Source of the DNA: Clostridia bacterium
GTDB lineage: Bacteria > Bacillota > Clostridia > Oscillospirales > Acutalibacteraceae
Direction: 5' to 3'
DNA: 64,000 nucleotides
Assembly: GCA_017516315.1 (NCBI GenBank)
Contig: JAFXDE010000054.1
Span: 15,251-79,250, forward strand
The notes beneath the pieces were generated by a model. That model did not search any database. It was not told the DNA's origin and saw nothing but the letters and a program-made list of their open reading frames with translations. Every line of letters starts with the position of its first letter. The first letter of the stretch is position 1. Position numbers and translations under genes: made by a program. Of the stretch, positions 7,473-23,781 are shown in pieces.

Positions 7473-9821
7473 ATGATTTATATCAACAAAGACAATGTAT
7501 TCCATTTACAGAGTGAGAAGACCAGCTATGTGTTCAGAGCACTTCCTACAGGTCAGCTCGAGGGTATGTACTACGGCAGAAAAATCAGAAATTCTGATGA
7601 TTTTACTTATCTTTACGATAAGCACGCTTCCGGTTACAGTAACTCCACTCCATACACTCAGGAGGATAAATCTCTTTCTCTTGACCATATCGCTTTAGAG
7701 TATTCCGCTTACGGCAAGGGTGATTACCGAATTCCTGCCATGCAGCTTATGCCCGAGGACGGTATCTTCACTACAGACTTCAAATATAAATCTCACGGCG
7801 TTACTAAGGTTAAGCCTGAGCTTCACGGCCTCCCCTCAAGCTACGGTGACAGCGATACTCTTACTGTCGTTCTCGAGGATAAGGCATTAAAGGCTGAGCT
7901 TCATCTTTTCTACACTGTTTTCAGCGAATGTAATGTTATAACCAGAAGCGCGAGACTTATCAATAAGGGCGACAGCACTATTAAAATTCATTCTCTTATG
8001 AGTATGCAGCTTGACCTCCAAAGAGGCGATTATGTAATGCTCTCCTTTGACGGCGCCTGGGCAAGAGAAAGATATAAGAATGAAAGACCTCTCGTTCCCG
8101 GTGTATGTGAAATCGGCTCTATCGCAGGCTATTCTTCAAACCGTCATAATCCTTTCTTTGCTATCAGAGAAAAGGACACTACCGAGCATAAAGGTAACTG
8201 CTACGGCTTTAATCTCGTTTATTCCGGTAACCATACAGCGAGAGCTGAGGTTTCCACTCACGGTCTCGTAAGAATCCAAAACGGTATCAATCCCTTCGAA
8301 TTTGAATGGCACCTCGGTGCAGGCGAGTCCTTCGATACTCCCGAGGCAGTTATGACCTTCAGCCACGAGGGTCTCAACGGTATGAGCCATAATATGCACG
8401 ATTTCGTTAACGAGCATATCGTAAGAGGCTACTGGAAGGGCAAGGAGCGTCCCGTCCTCGTTAATAACTGGGAATGCACTACCTTCAGCTTCACCGAGAA
8501 GAAAATCCTCGAAATCGCTAAGGCGACAAAGAATATCGGCGCAGAAATGTTTGTTCTCGATGACGGCTGGTTCGGTAAAAGAAACAACGATAAAGCAGGT
8601 CTCGGCGACTGGTATGTAAATATGAAAAAGCTTCCCAGCGGTATCGGCGGCCTTGCAAAAAAGGTAAACGATATGGGACTTAAGTTCGGACTTTGGGTAG
8701 AGCCTGAAATGGTCAATCCCGATTCGGACCTTTACCGCGAGCATCCCGACTGGGCTATGACCACAGATAAATACGAGCCTTCACAGGGTAGAAATCAGCT
8801 CACCCTCGATCTTACCAGAAAAGAGGTAAGAGAGTATATTATCAATACAATGACCGATGTTTTCCGTTACGGTAACATAGAATATATCAAATGGGATAAT
8901 AACCGTCAGTTCTCTGATGTTTTCTCCCGTCAGAAGGGTGCCAAGAGTGGTGAATATTTCCACAGATTTATATTAGGTCTTTACGAAATCTGGGATGCAC
9001 TTATCGGCAGATTCCCTGAAATCCTCTTCGAAGCCTGCTCAAGCGGCGGTAACCGTTTTGACCTGGGTACCTTCTGCTATATGCCTCAGTGCTGGACGAG
9101 CGACAATACCGATGTTCTTGACAGACTTTACATTCAGAGTGGCACCTCCTACGGTTATCCTCAGTCTGTAACTACCATGCACGTCGCTGCTTCTATGAGC
9201 TTTGCTAATTTCAGAGCCCAGAGCATCGATCATCGCTTTAATGTTTCTGCCTTCGGTGTTCTCGGTTATGAGCTCGATGTTACTATGCTTTCCGATCTTG
9301 ACAGAGCCAGAGTAAAGAAGCAGATAGAGTTTTATAAAAAGCACAGAAAGCTTTTACAGTTCGGCGATTACTCGCGTACAGGCGACATCAATGTAGATGA
9401 CAAGGTTATGTGGCAGATTACCTCTAAGGATAAGAGCGAGGCTATGCTAGGCTACTTCGTAGACAGAGTAAGACCAAACTGGGGTAATGATGTAATCAAA
9501 TTCTCTGACCTTAACGAGGACTTCACTTATGATATGAGTGTCCGTACGCAGATTCTTGAGTTCAAAAACTTCGGCGAGATGATTAATGTACCTCTTCCGA
9601 AGAAAATGGATCTTGAGGACGGTAAGATGTTTGATTTCCTTTGTAAGACCGTCAAGCTCCGCAATGAAAAGGAAGACTACACCATTGGCGGCGATGCACT
9701 TATGAATTCCGGCTTCAAGCCTAAGCAGCCCTTCAACTACAGCGGCTTCAACTTCTCGAATTCAAGAATGCTCTTCGACAACGATTCCAGAATGTATTAT
9801 CTCAAAAAAACAGATAAATAA
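7473..9821 (+). CDS. glycoside hydrolase family 36 (alpha-galactosidase family)
   Basis: FVLDDGWF, IKWDNN and CSSGGNRFD motifs. I prefer ATG 7473, which follows GAGGAAGGAA, over the GTG at 7455 used in the ORF track. Confidence 0.85.
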   Translation: MIYINKDNVFHLQSEKTSYVFRALPTGQLEGMYYGRKIRNSDDFTYLYDKHASGYSNSTPYTQEDKSLSLDHIALEYSAYGKGDYRIPAMQLMPEDGIFTTDFKYKSHGVTKVKPELHGLPSSYGDSDTLTVVLEDKALKAELHLFYTVFSECNVITRSARLINKGDSTIKIHSLMSMQLDLQRGDYVMLSFDGAWARERYKNERPLVPGVCEIGSIAGYSSNRHNPFFAIREKDTTEHKGNCYGFNLVYSGNHTARAEVSTHGLVRIQNGINPFEFEWHLGAGESFDTPEAVMTFSHEGLNGMSHNMHDFVNEHIVRGYWKGKERPVLVNNWECTTFSFTEKKILEIAKATKNIGAEMFVLDDGWFGKRNNDKAGLGDWYVNMKKLPSGIGGLAKKVNDMGLKFGLWVEPEMVNPDSDLYREHPDWAMTTDKYEPSQGRNQLTLDLTRKEVREYIINTMTDVFRYGNIEYIKWDNNRQFSDVFSRQKGAKSGEYFHRFILGLYEIWDALIGRFPEILFEACSSGGNRFDLGTFCYMPQCWTSDNTDVLDRLYIQSGTSYGYPQSVTTMHVAASMSFANFRAQSIDHRFNVSAFGVLGYELDVTMLSDLDRARVKKQIEFYKKHRKLLQFGDYSRTGDINVDDKVMWQITSKDKSEAMLGYFVDRVRPNWGNDVIKFSDLNEDFTYDMSVRTQILEFKNFGEMINVPLPKKMDLEDGKMFDFLCKTVKLRNEKEDYTIGGDALMNSGFKPKQPFNYSGFNFSNSRMLFDNDSRMYYLKKTDK

Positions 9822-18664: not shown

Positions 18665-18741
18665 CCGCACGTGGCGCAGCCGGATAACGCAGCAGATTCC
18701 GATTCTGAAGAACGGGGGTTCGAATCCCTTCGTGCGGGCCA
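18665..18741 (+). tRNA. tRNA-Arg (anticodon CCG), CCA encoded
   Basis: Manual cloverleaf of 77 nt: acceptor CCGCACG/CGTGCGG; D arm GCGC-AGCCGGATA-ACGC; anticodon arm GCAGA-TTCCGAT-TCTGA; T arm GGGGG-TTCGAAT-CCCTT; discriminator G plus CCA. Confidence 0.9.
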
Positions 18742-18749
18742 AAAAATCC
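18723..18749 (+). repeat. direct repeat copy 1 (tRNA 3' end, att-like core)
   Basis: AATCCCTTCGTGCGGGCCAAAAAATCC, identical to 21422-21448. Confidence 0.95.
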
Positions 18750-18777
18750 GACAAGTTTCGACTTGTCGGATTTTTTT
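18742..18777 (+). terminator. rho-independent terminator after the tRNA
   Basis: 10-bp stem ATCCGACAAG / CTTGTCGGAT followed by TTTTTTT. Confidence 0.8.
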
Positions 18778-18780
18778 ATC

Positions 18781-18985
18781 CAAGCCGACAGGCTTGGTAT
18801 ATCATCACGCGTCAGCGTGTATATCACCAACACGGCATAGCCGTGTTGTATCTCATCACACCTTCAGGTGTGTATATCTGTCGGCTTGATGATATGCAAA
18901 GCTTCGCATTGATGATATACAACTTCTTGCGAAGTTGATGATATGCAATTCCTTTGGAATTGATGATATACAAGGCTTCGCCTTG
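18781..18985. repeat. hairpin array 1: eight short hairpins with unique stems, separated by TATATCA (x4) then inverted TGATATA (x4) spacers
   Basis: Hairpins: 18781-96, 18806-19, 18828-48, 18857-72, 18897-911 (imperfect), 18920-37, 18946-62, 18971-85. Spacers: TATATCA-like at 18798, 18820, 18849, 18873; TGATAT(A/G) at 18890, 18913, 18939, 18964. Confidence 0.85.
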
Positions 18986-19149
18986 ATTTGATTTTCAAAC
19001 ATTCACCAACACGATTCTAATTTATGCTTTTTAATAGAGAAGTAAGCCAAAAATATACAAGGTAATTCTGAGAAAACACTTGATTGTTCTATATTGAAAA
19101 TATGATCTTTTGTAATCTGTTTTTTATGTTTATAAAACAATAAAAAGCA

Positions 19150-19178
19150 TTGACATTAAAATTAATTTTTGTTAATAT
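19150..19178 (+). promoter_or_regulatory. sigma-70-type promoter of the surface protein gene
   Basis: TTGACA (19150-55), 17-nt spacer, TAATAT (19173-78). Confidence 0.5.
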
Positions 19179-19233
19179 TTTCTTAGAGTGGAAACAATCC
19201 CTCTGAAAAACACATTATGAAAGGATGAGAAAA

Positions 19234-21186
19234 ATGAAAAAAATTATGGTAATTGTTTTGTCGGTGCTTATGGCGTTTTCTGTTATGCCTATGGCGTTTG
19301 CTCAGGATGCACATAACTGTGTTGATGCAGATAACTGCCTTGTTTGCTATATTGCAGAGCTCATCAATTCTCTGCCGGAAGCAAAGGACATTTCTGCAGA
19401 AAACGCAGCAGAGGTTACTGATACCATTCATGCAGTAGACTGCGTGAAATTTGAACTGACTGACGAAGAATATGATGAACTTCTCAGTCTTGTTGCTGCA
19501 GCTGAAAATAGCAATGGCGGTTTGCCTGTGCCTAAGGCATATATGGAAGCTCTGAATGCTATTGTTAATCTGGATGACGGCTGTTCATTCCATATTTCAA
19601 AGGATGTATTATTAAAGGGAGAAGATATCTATGATCTCAGTGAAGCCTATGTTGCTTTTGAGATTACGGGAGAAAACGGCTACTGTTCAACTCTCACTCT
19701 CAGAGATGCTGTTCAGGGCGTTTTTACTCTTGACGAATCGCAGGTTGCTTCCGTGGACTTCTTTACCGCTACTCTTGCAAGCTTCGAGGGATATTACACT
19801 ATGGATAAGCAGGGCTGGACTTATTCATACACACTTCCTGCAGGTACATATACCATTAAAGAGGTTACCGATTCAATGATAATCAACGGTACAGAATACA
19901 CAGACGCTACTGTTTCATTCAACGGTGAGTCTGCTGAAAGCTATACCTTCATATTAAAAGAAGGTGAGGATGTTTCTCTGCTTATCGGAAACTATTACGA
20001 CGGAGAAATAAACATCTGGTATGAAGCAAACGGCGGTGAAGGTGAAATGTATCCTGATATCGCTACCAGATATAACGAATTCACTCTCTCACCCAATGCC
20101 TTTACAAAAACCGGCTATGTTTTCAAGGGCTGGAGCGATGATATAGGCAATTCTTATGATGATGGTGGCACATATTACTTTGATAATTCTACAACTTTAT
20201 TTGCTCAGTGGGAAGAATGTACCGAGCACATCTGGAGCGACGGCACTTGCTCAAAATGCGGCACAGAATGCTCTCACGACACAATGACATCTGAAATTAC
20301 CGCACGTCCCGAAAGCAGTGATGGCATAAGCTGGTCAAAGGGTGAAAAGACCTATACCTGCACCTGCGGATATAGCTACGCTCAGGAAGCTGACCGTGCA
20401 GATTATTCCGAATATATCAAGGCAGCTTTAGAGTTTGCAGAACTCGCTTCCACAGAAGGTCTTACAGATACAGCTAAAATAAGCATAGCGGCTGACTATG
20501 CCGATCTTGGAGAGCTTGCACAGAATCTCATTACAGACGAGCAGAAAATCGTTGACGATTATGTTGCCGGCTTAAAGGCTCTTATTGAAAAGATTAAAGC
20601 AGGTATAGCGGACGGATCTTATCTTAAGGCTGACTATACAGAGCTTGAAGTAGCTATTGATGAGCTTGAAAAAGTTCTTGCTGAAAACGAAGCTCTTCTT
20701 ACCGAAAAGGCTGTACAGGAGCTTAAGGATGCTATTGCCGATGCTGAAAGCACCGACAAAAACCTTACAAAGAGTGCTCAGGATACAGCGATCCTCGATG
20801 CTGCCGTAAAGGCTGCCAAGGATGCCGCTGTGCTTGATGATAGTGATTTCAGAGTTGACACCACTGAAGCAGAAAAGCTTATTGTCGAGCTTGAAGAAAA
20901 AGAGATAGCCGATGAAGCTCTTAAAGCTGAAATTGAAAATATCAAGGCTGAAATTGAAAAAATCAAGGCCGACAAAAATGCTTCCAAGGCTGAATACGAT
21001 GAGGTTGTTGGTGGATATGTCAACCGACTTCAGGAAATCAAGAGCGTGATTAATAATGAAGATGAGTTCCGTTGCGGAATGTGTGACACTTATGAAAAGA
21101 ATGCAGACACACCTGTTATCGGCATTATCATGAAGATTATTCATTTCTTTGTTCACTTTGCTCAGCTTATCTCTTTCAAATCATAA
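19234..21186 (+). CDS. secreted surface protein with InlB B-repeat-like module, Cys-rich segments, helical repeats and a C-terminal hydrophobic tail
   Basis: Signal peptide MKKIMVIVLSVLMAFSVMPMAFA. The YEANGGEGEM...GYVFKGWSDD...LFAQWEE module looks like a Listeria-Bacteroides repeat. Several CxxC pairs and a long acidic helical region with KAEIENIKAEIEKIKAD repeats. The terminal VIGIIMKIIHFFVHFAQLISF is hydrophobic, and there is no LPXTG. Confidence 0.7.
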   Translation: MKKIMVIVLSVLMAFSVMPMAFAQDAHNCVDADNCLVCYIAELINSLPEAKDISAENAAEVTDTIHAVDCVKFELTDEEYDELLSLVAAAENSNGGLPVPKAYMEALNAIVNLDDGCSFHISKDVLLKGEDIYDLSEAYVAFEITGENGYCSTLTLRDAVQGVFTLDESQVASVDFFTATLASFEGYYTMDKQGWTYSYTLPAGTYTIKEVTDSMIINGTEYTDATVSFNGESAESYTFILKEGEDVSLLIGNYYDGEINIWYEANGGEGEMYPDIATRYNEFTLSPNAFTKTGYVFKGWSDDIGNSYDDGGTYYFDNSTTLFAQWEECTEHIWSDGTCSKCGTECSHDTMTSEITARPESSDGISWSKGEKTYTCTCGYSYAQEADRADYSEYIKAALEFAELASTEGLTDTAKISIAADYADLGELAQNLITDEQKIVDDYVAGLKALIEKIKAGIADGSYLKADYTELEVAIDELEKVLAENEALLTEKAVQELKDAIADAESTDKNLTKSAQDTAILDAAVKAAKDAAVLDDSDFRVDTTEAEKLIVELEEKEIADEALKAEIENIKAEIEKIKADKNASKAEYDEVVGGYVNRLQEIKSVINNEDEFRCGMCDTYEKNADTPVIGIIMKIIHFFVHFAQLISFKS

Positions 21187-21262
21187 CATAAGAATGACAG
21201 AACAATTCAAGATGTGAACAGTGCTATATCTTGTTGCCAAATTGACCTGTAAACACAAAAAA

Positions 21263-21298
21263 ATATAACGGTGCCGATAGGTGCCGTTATGTTTTTTT
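21263..21298 (+). terminator. rho-independent terminator
   Basis: Stem ATAACGG / CCGTTAT with a 12-nt loop and TTTTTTT. Confidence 0.65.
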
Positions 21299-21310
21299 AG
21301 ATACAATCAA

Positions 21311-21440
21311 CCGAAGGGATTTGAACAAGGAGGGAGCGAAGCGGAAGAAAACAGTCCGGTGGACTGTTTTCGCCGACATGGCAACGAGCTTGCGAGGCGA
21401 TAGTGCGGTAGCACGGGACAAAATCCCTTCGTGCGGGCCA
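21311..21440 (+). other. structured noncoding segment ending in a tRNA-Arg 3' fragment (pseudo-tRNA / att arm)
   Basis: CGAAGGGATTT (21312-22) is the exact inverted complement of AAATCCCTTCG (21421-31). An 11-bp hairpin lies at 21347-21371. Weak, mostly transition-type similarity to the tRNA body lies upstream of the exact repeat. The segment cannot fold as a cloverleaf. Confidence 0.5.
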
Positions 21441-21448
21441 AAAAATCC
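21422..21448 (+). repeat. direct repeat copy 2 (tRNA 3' end, att-like core)
   Basis: Identical 27-mer to 18723-18749. Confidence 0.95.
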
Positions 21449-21471
21449 AAGTCTTCGGACTTGGATTTTTT
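21441..21471 (+). terminator. rho-independent terminator (diverged paralogue of 18742-18777)
   Basis: 9-bp stem ATCCAAGTC / GACTTGGAT, TTCG loop, TTTTTT. Confidence 0.75.
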
Positions 21472-21472
21472 C

Positions 21473-21640
21473 AGTTATGTCCGCAGAACATAACTTCAGT
21501 CAGCGGCATTTATGACGCTGACTTCATTACGGCCTTTAGCCGTACTTCATTTGTCGGACATAAACGAATGAAGTTACCTTACGGTAAATGAGTGCTGTCG
21601 CAATAAAGTGGCTTTGCCAATGAAATGTGCCTACGGTACA
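21473..21640. repeat. hairpin array 2: same architecture as array 1, with ACTTCA (x3) then inverted TGAAGT-like (x3) spacers
   Basis: Hairpins: 21473-95, 21498-523, 21528-44, 21575-86, 21609-19, 21626-40. ACTTCA at 21493, 21521, 21544. TGAAGT/TGAGT/TGAAAT at 21569, 21589, 21621. The central 8-bp stem ACTTCATT/AATGAAGT encloses 21552-66. Confidence 0.8.
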
Positions 21641-21811
21641 ACGGCTTGACTTTTTCTATTCTCACACCGATTGTAATTCAGCATAAAGTGTGATATAATC
21701 ATCCCGATAAAGTCGGGTGAATTCAAGCTCAGCTATCGACTTTATTATCTTGCCGAGCATCGAAAGGGTGGGGCATCAATCAGTAATATTCAGTAAAAAA
21801 TACAACAAAGA

Positions 21812-21886: not shown

Positions 21887-22435
21887 TTGGAAATAAAAGG
21901 AAGTTCAAAACATGAATTATGTAAGCGCTTATGGCTTGAAAACGAACCGAAGATAAGAAGACTGTGTGAATATAAATTAAGCAGTCATCCTGACGAGGCA
22001 GAAGATATTATAGCAGAAACAGCATTGATTCTCTGGACGGCTATCTTTGAAGATACACCGATAAAATATCCTAACTCCTGGATATATGCCGTAGCCGGTA
22101 ATCTTATCAAGAAAAAGTACACAGAGCTTAAAATTTCGAAGGAGCGCAAAATCCCCTTTGACGATAAAGACCCTGAAATGCACGAATTGGCTGTCGGCTA
22201 TGATTATGACAGTCGGTTAGTGCCCGATGATCTCATAGAAAGATTTTCCGTACACGCAGAGCCTTTATTGAAGGACGATGAAAAACAGCTTTATCAGTAT
22301 GTTTATGAAGATAAGCTGAAAATGAAGGAAATAGCGGTTTTAATGTCTTCTACGGAATCGGCGGTAAAGCAGAGAAATTACCGACTTACGAGAACGCTGA
22401 AAAGACTGATTAAAGAATTTTTAGAAAATTTATAA
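21887..22435 (+). CDS. sigma-70 family (ECF-like) RNA polymerase sigma factor
   Basis: Region 2 (DEAEDIIAETALILW...NSWIYAVAGNLIKKKY) and region 4 HTH (MKEIAVLMSSTESAVKQRNYRLTRTLKRL). TTG 21887 lies 7 nt after GAGGCGGGG and downstream of the promoter. Confidence 0.75.
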   Translation: MEIKGSSKHELCKRLWLENEPKIRRLCEYKLSSHPDEAEDIIAETALILWTAIFEDTPIKYPNSWIYAVAGNLIKKKYTELKISKERKIPFDDKDPEMHELAVGYDYDSRLVPDDLIERFSVHAEPLLKDDEKQLYQYVYEDKLKMKEIAVLMSSTESAVKQRNYRLTRTLKRLIKEFLENL

Positions 22436-22492
22436 AAAATTTGTGTTACTTTTTATGTGCTTTTATAACTAACTCTATGAAGGAGGTATAAA

Positions 22493-23269
22493 ATGAATAG
22501 CGGTGCTTTAAAAGAAATTTTAAAAGTTGAGTTTTTGAGCTTTACCAAAGAAGAGATAGAAAACATTATGGATGAAGAGCTTGAAAAATCTCCCGAAGAG
22601 ATGGACACAGAGCTTATTGAAATGTGTCTTGACATTCTGACGGGAAAGCCGAAAGAAAAGGCAGATGAAGTGTTAACTGATTCACCTGCAGTGTCAGATA
22701 AAACAGTTAAAAAAATAAAATTCAAGAAAGGAATATTAGTCGCTGCAATTATCGCGCTTTTTATAACTGTTTCTGTTCCTGTCGGCGCCAAAATCTTTGA
22801 TATCAATGTTCCGGAAAGTATACTTAAGATTTACGAAGAGTATTTTCAGCTTAATCTTGATGGCGAAACTCAGAGTGAAGATTTAGATACTATTTTAGCT
22901 TGCTACGATTTAGATAGTCTTATTTTGCCGAGATTTTTGTTTTTAGATTGTAAAATAAGTGAATTTGAAAAAGTGATTGATGAATATAAAACTCAAATTA
23001 GTTTTAAGTATGTTTCGAAAGAGCAAAAAATGAGTGGAGATGTTATATTAAATATATTCAAACAAAATATGAACTTTTTAGATCGTGAAATGAAGGTTAA
23101 CGACCAATACGAAGAAGCTAAAAGAATTACGGTGAATGGAATTAATGTAATCGTCTTTAAAAAAGGCAGAGAAGTTTATATATTGTATTCAGTTACTGGA
23201 ACAGAATACAATATTATGTTATATGGTGTTACTATAGATGAAGCTGTTGAGATTGCAAGCACTTTATAA
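22493..23269 (+). CDS. single-pass membrane protein, putative anti-sigma factor (DUF4367-like C-terminal domain)
   Basis: RBS GAAGGAGG. Acidic cytoplasmic N-terminus, TM helix ILVAAIIALFITVSVPVGA, and an extracytoplasmic domain ending ...VNGINVIVFKKGREVYILYSV. The call rests on position directly after the sigma gene. Confidence 0.55.
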   Translation: MNSGALKEILKVEFLSFTKEEIENIMDEELEKSPEEMDTELIEMCLDILTGKPKEKADEVLTDSPAVSDKTVKKIKFKKGILVAAIIALFITVSVPVGAKIFDINVPESILKIYEEYFQLNLDGETQSEDLDTILACYDLDSLILPRFLFLDCKISEFEKVIDEYKTQISFKYVSKEQKMSGDVILNIFKQNMNFLDREMKVNDQYEEAKRITVNGINVIVFKKGREVYILYSVTGTEYNIMLYGVTIDEAVEIASTL

Positions 23270-23280
23270 ATATAATTATT

Positions 23281-23781
23281 ATGAAAAGGTTTCTTAAAAT
23301 TGCGTTAGTTGTTGTTTTATGTATTGCTTCATTGTTTCCTATGAAATCTTTTGCTATTGACGGCGAAAAAGTACAGTGGTATAACATTGACTTTCCCGAA
23401 AGTGAGATTCAGAGGATATTAGGGTTAAATCCTCAGGATGAAGCATCAACGAGGGCATCAGATTTAATTGTTTCATATAATGTTGGCATAGCTAAGGATG
23501 GTTCTACAATAAAATTAGTTGCGAAGATGGTTTGTGATGGTGATGTCGTAAAATGCGGCTTTAAAAAAATACTCATACAAAAAAGAGCAACAACAAGTTC
23601 TTCGTGGTCAACATGTCTCACTTTAGAAGATCTTTATTATAATGGTTATGCTCATTCAATCGGGAGAATTATTTCAGTGCCTTACGGTTATCAGTACCGC
23701 GCTGTATGTACCTTCTATGCTAAGAAAAGCCTTCTGGTAACACAGAAAATTGAATTGGCTTCTAATATAGTTACTATTTAA
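23281..23781 (+). CDS. secreted hypothetical protein (166 aa)
   Basis: Signal peptide ending SFA-ID. Very AT-rich coding sequence. No motif recognised. Confidence 0.5.
   Translation: MKRFLKIALVVVLCIASLFPMKSFAIDGEKVQWYNIDFPESEIQRILGLNPQDEASTRASDLIVSYNVGIAKDGSTIKLVAKMVCDGDVVKCGFKKILIQKRATTSSSWSTCLTLEDLYYNGYAHSIGRIISVPYGYQYRAVCTFYAKKSLLVTQKIELASNIVTI

Follow-up and report, generated by a model that had tools for sequence, protein, structure and literature searches.

How can two non-coding stretches of one locus share an architecture while being written in different words, and what might such an architecture do? The question arises in the window, the whole stretch of 64,000 nucleotides from an Acutalibacteraceae contig analysed here, where a tRNA-Arg gene and a second copy of its 3' end are each followed by a terminator and then by a run of short hairpins alternating with short repeated words. 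We call these two runs array 1 and array 2. Each arm of an array is built of units, a GC-rich mini-hairpin and then an AT-rich word of 7-10 nt, and both arms point to a short centre. A first-pass annotation of this DNA had noticed that the architecture occurs twice with different words, and this holds. The arrays are apparently an undescribed family in rumen Clostridia (Acutalibacteraceae). Array 2 is a copy of a conserved, two-armed, mirror-polar non-coding module family that lies at transcription-unit boundaries, and from the sequences we tentatively suggest that the module serves there as a two-sided transcription barrier, or insulator.

Organization of array 2

Array 2 occupies positions 21473-21639. 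Three ACTTCA(G/T) words, a 15-nt centre and four AATGAAGT-like words in inverted orientation follow one another there, separated by short hairpins. In the left arm and centre (21473..21566, plus strand), hairpins at 21473-21495 (8-bp stem), 21498-21523 (8 bp) and 21528-21544 (6 bp) alternate with words that start at 21493, 21521 and 21544, and the alternation ends in the centre at 21552-21566. The right arm (21567..21639, minus strand) holds the inverted words AATGAAGT (21567-21574), AATGAGT (21587-21593), the degenerate AATAAAGT (21602-21609) and AATGAAAT (21619-21626), together with hairpins at 21574-21587 (5 bp), 21609-21619 (4 bp) and 21627-21639 (5 bp, one G.T pair included). All six hairpins thus lie at, or within 1-2 nt of, the places given in the first-pass annotation, and the words and centre are as described there, except that the copy AATAAAGT had been missed.

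The predicted fold ties the two arms together. The innermost word pair, ACTTCATT/AATGAAGT, appears in it as a stem, as the first-pass annotation had proposed, and CGGACATAA in the centre is complementary to TTATGTCCG at 21475-21483. Folded alone, the left arm and centre are predicted to form a closed multibranch domain, and the right-arm hairpins have stable G..A loops on the minus strand. The closing helix between the first hairpin and the centre is 90% paired and nearly invariant within the array 2 class.

The word itself is not enriched in the window (15 copies of ACTTCA(G/T) found, 17.7 expected), and four of these 15 fall within 82 nt at array 2, in the predicted orientations. None of 300 dinucleotide shuffles reached the combined score of array 2 for word copies and orientation switch, which is 12. 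Four other 168-nt frames in the 64 kb score at least as high as array 2: one overlaps array 1, and the remaining three are made of A/T or C/T low-complexity words with a hairpin cover of 0-20%. Hairpins cover 32% of array 2 and 51% of array 1. The folding z-scores are -3.6 (plus strand) and -4.8 (minus strand) for array 2, and -8.5 and -7.1, respectively, for array 1. The latter (18778..18985) has a left arm of four hairpins with the word TATATCATC(A), a centre at 18879-18888, and a right arm of four GATGATATRC words with hairpins.

Recurrence in related genomes

The strongest support for the array being real is the recurrence of array 2 in other genomes. Relatives were found through a look-up of a 97-aa protein and a tRNA 3'-end scan of species-representative genomes; all are metagenome-assembled genomes or metagenome contigs of Acutalibacteraceae from ruminant guts, and many of the contigs break at the tRNA. 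Curation gave 21 arrays, taken from the window and from some 15 further genomes or contigs (loci are given by L numbers), and these arrays sort into at least five word classes on one shared plan. The flanking genes of the relatives are only 77-88% identical to those of the window (about 82%), indicating that the relatives are different species or deep lineages, whereas array 2 is about 90% identical.

Array 2 stands directly behind the intact tRNA in L005, L006, L008, L162, L163 and L174; since L005 and L006 share an identical array 2, these six loci represent five distinct variants. It is found further downstream in L001, L003 and L166. Array 1 lies behind the tRNA in L169 and L172, and behind a conserved non-coding block, described below, in L003, L161 and L177. 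A third word class (TATGTAATC / GATTACATA) occurs in L165, L170, L176 and L179, and bare tandem 7-mer versions with few or no side hairpins (ATTATTC... and CTTCACT-type words) in L163, L174, L176 and L178.

Two viral contigs, L149 and L156, also carry array 1. In both it lies beyond the displaced 3' end of another tRNA, at a prophage edge, and so is host DNA; once an orientation switch was required, these were the only real arrays to come out of word scans of viral contigs, the rest being mostly giant-virus tandem repeats. The phage database gave no match to array 1 or array 2. A metagenome scan with motif M, a conserved 26-mer that closes cargo genes at these loci, returned three short contigs only.

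Rules shared by the array family

What do arrays written in different words have in common? Among 63 distinct inter-word segments, 67% are perfect hairpins of at least 5 bp, compared with 3% of shuffles; the arrays counted are related to each other, and the samples behind this share, as behind the loop-polarity and complement-length counts below, are not independent. Stems change with compensation: one series runs from TTGCC/GGCAA through TTGCC/GGTAA, a G.T intermediate found in L003, to TTACC/GGTAA in the window, and one hairpin exists in three alternative forms (CAAGGC/GCCTTG, CAATGC/GCATTG and CACGGC/GCCGTG). The stems had been called unrelated in the first pass; the hairpins are there, but their stems are not all unique, for several recur in other arrays, some of them across word classes.

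The loops follow a strand rule. Left-arm loops are of the G..A type in 36 of 59 cases and of the T..C type in one; right-arm loops are T..C in 43 of 55 and G..A in none. Loop sequences differ between orthologous hairpins, and the polarity rule is kept. The closing pair is C-G in the hairpins inspected, which together with the loop polarity places the stable C(GNA)G or C(GNNA)G form on the top strand left of the centre and on the bottom strand right of it. The neighbouring true terminators have TTCG, TACG or GTAA tetraloops on the plus strand; because these are of RNA type, the array hairpins obey rules other than those of the terminators they adjoin.

The words, too, change in an orderly way. 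Whatever the class, the words of the two arms are reverse complements of each other. Classes 1 and 3 have hairpins in common at the same positions and are therefore homologous, and between them all word copies, in both arms, differ by the same two substitutions. Such concerted change is what co-evolution with a protein would give, and direct repeats in one arm, inverted repeats in the other and a partly palindromic centre resemble the arms of a lambda-type attP or the ends of Tn7-like elements. The words could then be iterated sites for a DNA-binding protein (integrase arm-type sites, transposase ends, or partition or replication iterons) opposed around a core. We regard this as quite improbable. 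Two word classes co-occur within single loci, and dedicated word-binding proteins are unlikely given at least five classes, two per locus, the lack of cognate genes nearby and an irregular word spacing of 16-28 nt. Binding sites would moreover leave the compensated hairpin spacers and the loop polarity unexplained, and a prophage that integrates at tRNA-Arg (L002) has different arm repeats and no array.

A further rule concerns the centre, which is complementary to the first hairpin's 5' half; the longest complement is 8.7 nt on average, compared with 3.5 nt (maximum 5) in control segments. This complementarity is found in four unrelated sequence families and co-varies between classes; in the bare classes the terminator itself stands in for the first hairpin. 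For the left arm alone, the predicted fold is a multibranch domain closed by a helix of 11-12 bp (z from -6 to -7.5).

Could arrays with these rules nevertheless lack a dedicated function? A lineage-specific palindromic repeat of the repetitive extragenic palindrome (REP) or bacterial interspersed mosaic element (BIME) kind, homogenised by slippage, template switching and recombination between copies, would account for much of the freedom that we see: the number of units varies, arms may be unequal (three words against one, or one against four), half arrays exist, hairpins are swapped between arrays and the bare tandem versions occur. Template switching can also perfect palindromes without selection. 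Such a repeat is harder to square with a loop polarity that is kept while loop sequences change, with the first-hairpin/centre complementarity in four families, with an invariant position relative to terminators, and with the higher conservation of array 2 than of its flanking genes. We consider it improbable that the arrays are mere by-products of this kind. The first-pass annotation had argued for selection on the architecture rather than a recent duplication, and at least five word classes, compensatory stem changes, concerted words and strand polarity bear out an architecture that is maintained and is no recent copy.

Position of the arrays and the cassette plan

Where do the arrays lie? 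In all arrays seen with an intact left flank, the T-tract of a terminator of the A-tract/T-tract type lies no more than about 3 nt from the start of the array, and this terminator follows either a tRNA 3' end (of tRNA-Arg or another tRNA) or motif M. The first-pass annotation had counted the tRNA 3' end as part of the module; since terminator and array also occur behind motif M and other tRNAs, it is not required. Most arrays run up to the -35 element of a promoter, which is of the type hairpin-AACGGA-TTGACT-17-TATAAT, TTGATT-17-TATAAT, or the conserved TGTGTGATATAAT type. After the promoter come a leader CTCGACAAATAAGAATTTG, the cargo, a trailer CAAATTCCAATTTGTCGAG, motif M, and the next terminator and array, with one array per cassette boundary. 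The trailer is a 19-nt inverted repeat of the leader, so that the cargo is bracketed (L163, L166, L178, L005-L008). The cargo varies between genomes and includes a CPBP-like membrane protein, four-helix-bundle proteins, small membrane proteins and a sigma factor; no recombinase was seen among the cassette cargo proteins read. The 19-nt repeats could bring the two ends of the mRNA together by pairing, or could mark an insertion site within a palindrome. They are degenerate in the window (21700-21730 and 21195-21230).

In the window, the plan begins with the intact tRNA-Arg(CCG) (18665..18741, plus strand; called by ARAGORN, and by Rfam as tRNA with 53 bits). Cassette 1 (18742..21256, plus strand) contains terminator 1 (18741..18777; A-tract, 16-bp stem, TTCG loop and T-tract), array 1, the gene for a 653-aa protein, and motif M (TTGTTGCCAAATTGACCTGTAAACAC, 21231..21256, plus strand). 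It is followed by terminator X (21257..21298) and by the block (21299..21421, about 120-140 nt), which leads into a direct copy of the tRNA 3' end. This copy is the second of a 27-mer (21422..21448, plus strand) that spans the tRNA-Arg 3' end and the start of the terminator A-tract; the 27-mer occurs exactly twice in the window (none expected), and its two copies, 2.7 kb apart, enclose a single surface-protein gene, in the order terminator 1, array 1, 653-aa protein gene, motif M, terminator X and block. Terminator 2 (21440..21471; A-tract, 14-bp stem, TTCG loop, T-tract) precedes array 2. Because A-tract, stem and T-tract are symmetric, the terminators of the locus can act both ways. Beyond array 2 lie a promoter-like site (21671..21699, plus strand; TTGTAA-17-TATAAT with a TG extension), which belongs to the conserved TGTGTGATATAAT cassette promoter, and the cargo of cassette 2 (21887..23781, plus strand), which encodes a sigma-70 region 2 protein (182 aa, as called in relatives) and proteins of 258 aa and 166 aa, neither with a Pfam match.

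An array flanked by a terminator and a promoter could also be read as a gene. On the minus strand it lies directly upstream of a good terminator, and it might supply the body of a ~250-nt small RNA that starts at a leftward promoter overlapping that of the cargo and stops at the bidirectional terminator. A plausible minus-strand promoter, read by eye and built from the conserved leader (TTGTCG-18-TAATAT or TACTAT), is present in several cassettes, the right-arm loops are GNRA or GNA on that strand, and array 2 folds slightly better there (z of -4.8, against -3.6 on the plus strand). However, a consensus scan found no minus-strand promoter beside array 2 of the window, the candidate is a poor one both in the window and in L162, and array 1 of the window and L149 are wholly without the promoter region. 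Left-arm loops are of the stable type on the other strand, and the arrays match no Rfam family. A small RNA is thus a doubtful explanation at best.

How did several cassettes come to lie behind one tRNA? Cassette 1 sits exactly between the tRNA CCA and terminator X, and these two adjoin in L001, L003 and L007; terminator X follows the tRNA directly in these three loci and in L161, L171 and L173. In L182 the stretch that in the window runs from the block through the tRNA-Arg 3' end, terminator 2 and array 2 to the sigma cassette recurs with hardly any change (segment 2558-3290, block 2690-2830), there behind tRNA-Ser(CGA) and with metG-tatD upstream, indicating that the segment has moved between tRNA loci. 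It looks as if integrase-less cassettes accrete serially behind tRNAs; homologous recombination through the conserved non-coding parts would yield the same picture.

These observations also raise the possibility that the array is a folded single-stranded DNA recombination site, similar to the attC sites of integrons, at which a recombinase encoded elsewhere moves the bordering cassettes. Arrays are present at every cassette boundary and the cassette edges are formatted, from terminator, array, promoter and 19-nt leader through cargo to the inverted 19-nt trailer and motif M. The exact placement of cassette 1 and the transfer to tRNA-Ser(CGA) in L182 fit such a site, as does the attC-like retention of structure while sequence is replaced, and GNA triloops suit DNA hairpins. 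What makes us hold this reading unlikely is, in part, the lack of any recombinase or transposase among the scanned window open reading frames (ORFs) of at least 150 aa or in the cargos read. The attC core motifs are present in none of 21 arrays, and attC uses one strand, whereas the array hairpins switch strand at the centre. Between genomes, the breakpoints are not sharp and fall within conserved sequence, as homologous exchange would give. A more specific form, which we think rather improbable, would make the arrays the recombination sites of an undescribed gene-cassette system of Clostridia that has no adjacent integrase, in which self-expressed cassettes are inserted serially behind the tRNA CCA at a shape-recognised, two-sided, strand-switching single-stranded DNA hairpin.

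The first-pass annotation had assigned the arrays to an element that targets this tRNA. This stands only in a weak sense: the arrays do lie at the edge of cassettes behind tRNAs, but there is no integrase with them, and the assignment is weakened by the true prophages at tRNA-Arg (L002, L167, L168), which have an integrase and arm repeats of their own and lack an array. The arrays may instead mark the left edge of small integrase-less cassettes that stack behind the tRNA.

A possible two-sided barrier between transcription units

From the observed architecture, conservation, strand flip, pairing rules and genomic position we infer a single-stranded acting form, and transcription as the process concerned. 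Compensatory change that preserves the stems, together with a strand-specific loop rule, argues that the units act single-stranded, and the module would then work as a folded single-stranded nucleic acid and not as a set of protein-binding sites. The strand flip means that a machine travelling on the top strand from the left and one travelling on the bottom strand from the right meet the same units; in other words, the same stable run of hairpins plus words would be offered to machinery entering from either side. We favour a two-sided barrier because the array adjoins a bidirectional terminator and lies between transcription units. Attached to this terminator, the barrier could stop leak-through from the left and antisense transcription from the right, acting through hairpins in the nascent RNA or in the displaced non-template strand. 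The words of one arm may pair with those of the other, so that closing helix and word pairing would lock the fold. As a result, the tRNA or upstream cargo would be kept independent of the promoter of the next cargo.

Several points weigh against such a barrier. Array hairpins are followed by 2-5 T in 8 nt, compared with 6-7 for real terminators, and because the words are merely moderately U-rich, the units do not look like canonical intrinsic terminators; among array hairpins, a consensus terminator scan flags only 21528-21544 and 18971-18985. A strong terminator already lies ahead of each array, no obvious transcription unit enters the array from the right, and arm lengths can be very unequal, as noted above. 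An insulator role leaves both the identity of the words and the centre's copy of half of the first hairpin unexplained. Within array 2, helices are ~86-90% paired, and almost all pairs are invariant or changed on one side only, which leaves little formal covariation in this array taken by itself. Finally, GNA triloops closed by C-G suggest hairpins of DNA, of the d(GCGAAGC) minihairpin type, and not of RNA. Owing to the weak U-richness, the prior terminator, the unexplained words and centre copy, and the GNA triloops, our confidence in the barrier is low. Counts of G.T versus A.C mismatches, which might have indicated the folded strand, comprised too few cases.

Three further candidates were rejected. 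An invertible segment is suggested by a 10-12-bp inverted repeat, made up of the 5' half of the first hairpin and the centre, that flanks the left arm, yet all 21 of 21 arrays are in the same mirrored state. A Chi-like or replication-priming role of word orientation was set aside as the primary explanation, as the words differ between arrays of one genome. A transposon nature of each cassette, with terminal repeats derived from the arrays, was dropped because the facing arms of arrays 1 and 2 in the window (right and left, respectively) carry different words.

We rate the arrays as a new kind of non-coding architecture with its function unproven. If their rules reflect function, they represent a new structured boundary element, defined by mirror-polar units, concerted words, pairing between first hairpin and centre, and a fixed position between terminator and promoter. 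In the formatted cassette locus that lies behind tRNA genes in abundant Clostridia of rumen and gut, they would be the most conspicuous component. They would also offer a testable case of selection on nucleic-acid shape in which the choice of strand switches inside one element. An array that insulates its neighbours could be a natural part for genetic design; were the arrays instead a by-product of palindrome dynamics, they would still be a clean model of array evolution.

Other features of the locus

The surroundings are ordinary chromosome, with IreB and a 97-aa gene upstream of tRNA-Arg(CCG) and ispE and pyr genes downstream. The 653-aa protein of cassette 1 (19225-21186) is secreted and contains a Listeria-Bacteroides repeat domain; its DNA has coiled-coil-like repeats with a 21-nt periodicity. 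It is cargo and not a mobility gene.

The block starts with a reverse-complement copy of the T-arm of the upstream tRNA, which is that of tRNA-Arg in the window (21311-21326) and that of tRNA-Ser in L182. It has an internal bidirectional hairpin (21348-21370), ends in the direct tRNA-Arg 3' end, and folds with a 12-bp closing helix (z of -3.2 and -3.9). In several genomes it lies directly behind the intact tRNA. The terminators at the locus have loops of RNA type (TTCG) or, in the case of terminator X, G.T pairs on the plus strand.

After array 2 there are two tandem modules with -35-like elements (21646-21699), AACGGC-TTGACT and CACCGA-TTGTAA, of which only the second has a well-spaced -10; elsewhere each module alone ends an array. 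Motif M (TTGTTGCYAAATTGAGCTGTAAACAC) also occurs at position 8728 of L001 and 8485 of L003, and in L163, L166, L169, L174, L176 and L178-L180. An A-tract and a bidirectional terminator come after it in every case, and it occupies the place that the tRNA 3' end has at the first cassette.

In the prophages at tRNA-Arg (L002 7420-8750; L167, L168), the integrase gene comes right after the tRNA, and there are an att-proximal sequence, GAAAAGTGCCCTAATCCCTTAT, and ATGCAAGTC arm repeats. Remnants of prophage att sites are kept in prophage-free genomes (L001, at about 7607-7660, and L007).

Comparison with known systems

Are the arrays a variant of something already described? In Rfam, at gathering and at permissive thresholds, only the tRNA passes, and the best array matches score ~20 bits against thresholds of at least 50. 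A literature search found no description of such hairpin/word arrays, and none of the described families known to us combines these features.

The arrays resemble clustered regularly interspaced short palindromic repeats (CRISPR) in that identical copies of a short repeat are separated by inserts that vary, and strains differ in how many units they have. However, array repeats are 7-10 nt long, compared with 23-55 nt, their orientation reverses in mid-array, the inserts are palindromes of 8-25 nt shared between arrays, and there are no cas genes in the window. With attP or attL sites of the lambda type they share a position beside a duplicated tRNA 3' end, words that are direct on one side and inverted on the other, and a length of ~200 bp. 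They differ in having no integrase, several word classes per genome and hairpin spacers, and in lying behind motif M as well; real prophages at tRNA-Arg are without them. In the available downstream sequence of the three loci checked, L162, L163 and L174, where the array follows the intact tRNA, no second copy of the tRNA end was seen.

Tycheposons accumulate variable cargo behind tRNAs, with partial tRNA copies between units, and carry tyrosine recombinases (bioRxiv 10.1101/2020.12.28.424599). No hairpin/word arrays are described there (bioRxiv 10.1101/2020.12.28.424599), and no recombinase was found at our loci. With regard to miniature inverted-repeat transposable elements, a pair of 19-nt inverted repeats, trailer and leader, encloses the non-coding DNA between one cargo and the next; no target duplication was seen, and copies came only from tRNA-linked cassette loci. 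The telomeres of Streptomyces linear replicons, and minihairpins of the d(GCGAAGC) type, consist of closely packed short palindromes whose GNA loops are closed by C-G and lie on the strand running 5' to 3' towards the end, as array hairpins do towards the centre; in these telomeres, too, the first palindrome pairs over a long range with a later one. The arrays, in contrast, are internal to the chromosome, have two arms that face each other, and show no terminal-protein or telomere context.

REP and BIME elements are likewise short GC-rich palindromes with conserved linkers, extragenic at the ends of transcription units, variable in copy number between strains and built of oriented units. In the arrays, the linkers are conserved and the palindromes vary (63 distinct segments), the orientation flips once, at the centre, rather than at every unit, and no gene of the RAYT type was seen. 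Moreover, arrays were met only behind terminators at tRNA-linked cassette loci, with no further copies elsewhere in the 64-kb window.

The attC sites of integrons are, like the arrays, non-coding sites of variable length between small cassettes with variable cargo, and imperfect palindromes that fold as a single strand, with the architecture kept and the sequence replaced. To our knowledge, integrons have not been reported in rumen or gut Clostridia. The arrays come without IntI, as no Phage_integrase or other recombinase domain was present in the window ORFs scanned or the cargo proteins read, and the core pair RYYYAAC / GTTRRRY is found on either strand in 0 of 21 arrays. Unlike those of integrons, the array cassettes bring their own promoter and terminator, and the site between them is built of repeated words and side hairpins, with a switch of strand at its centre.

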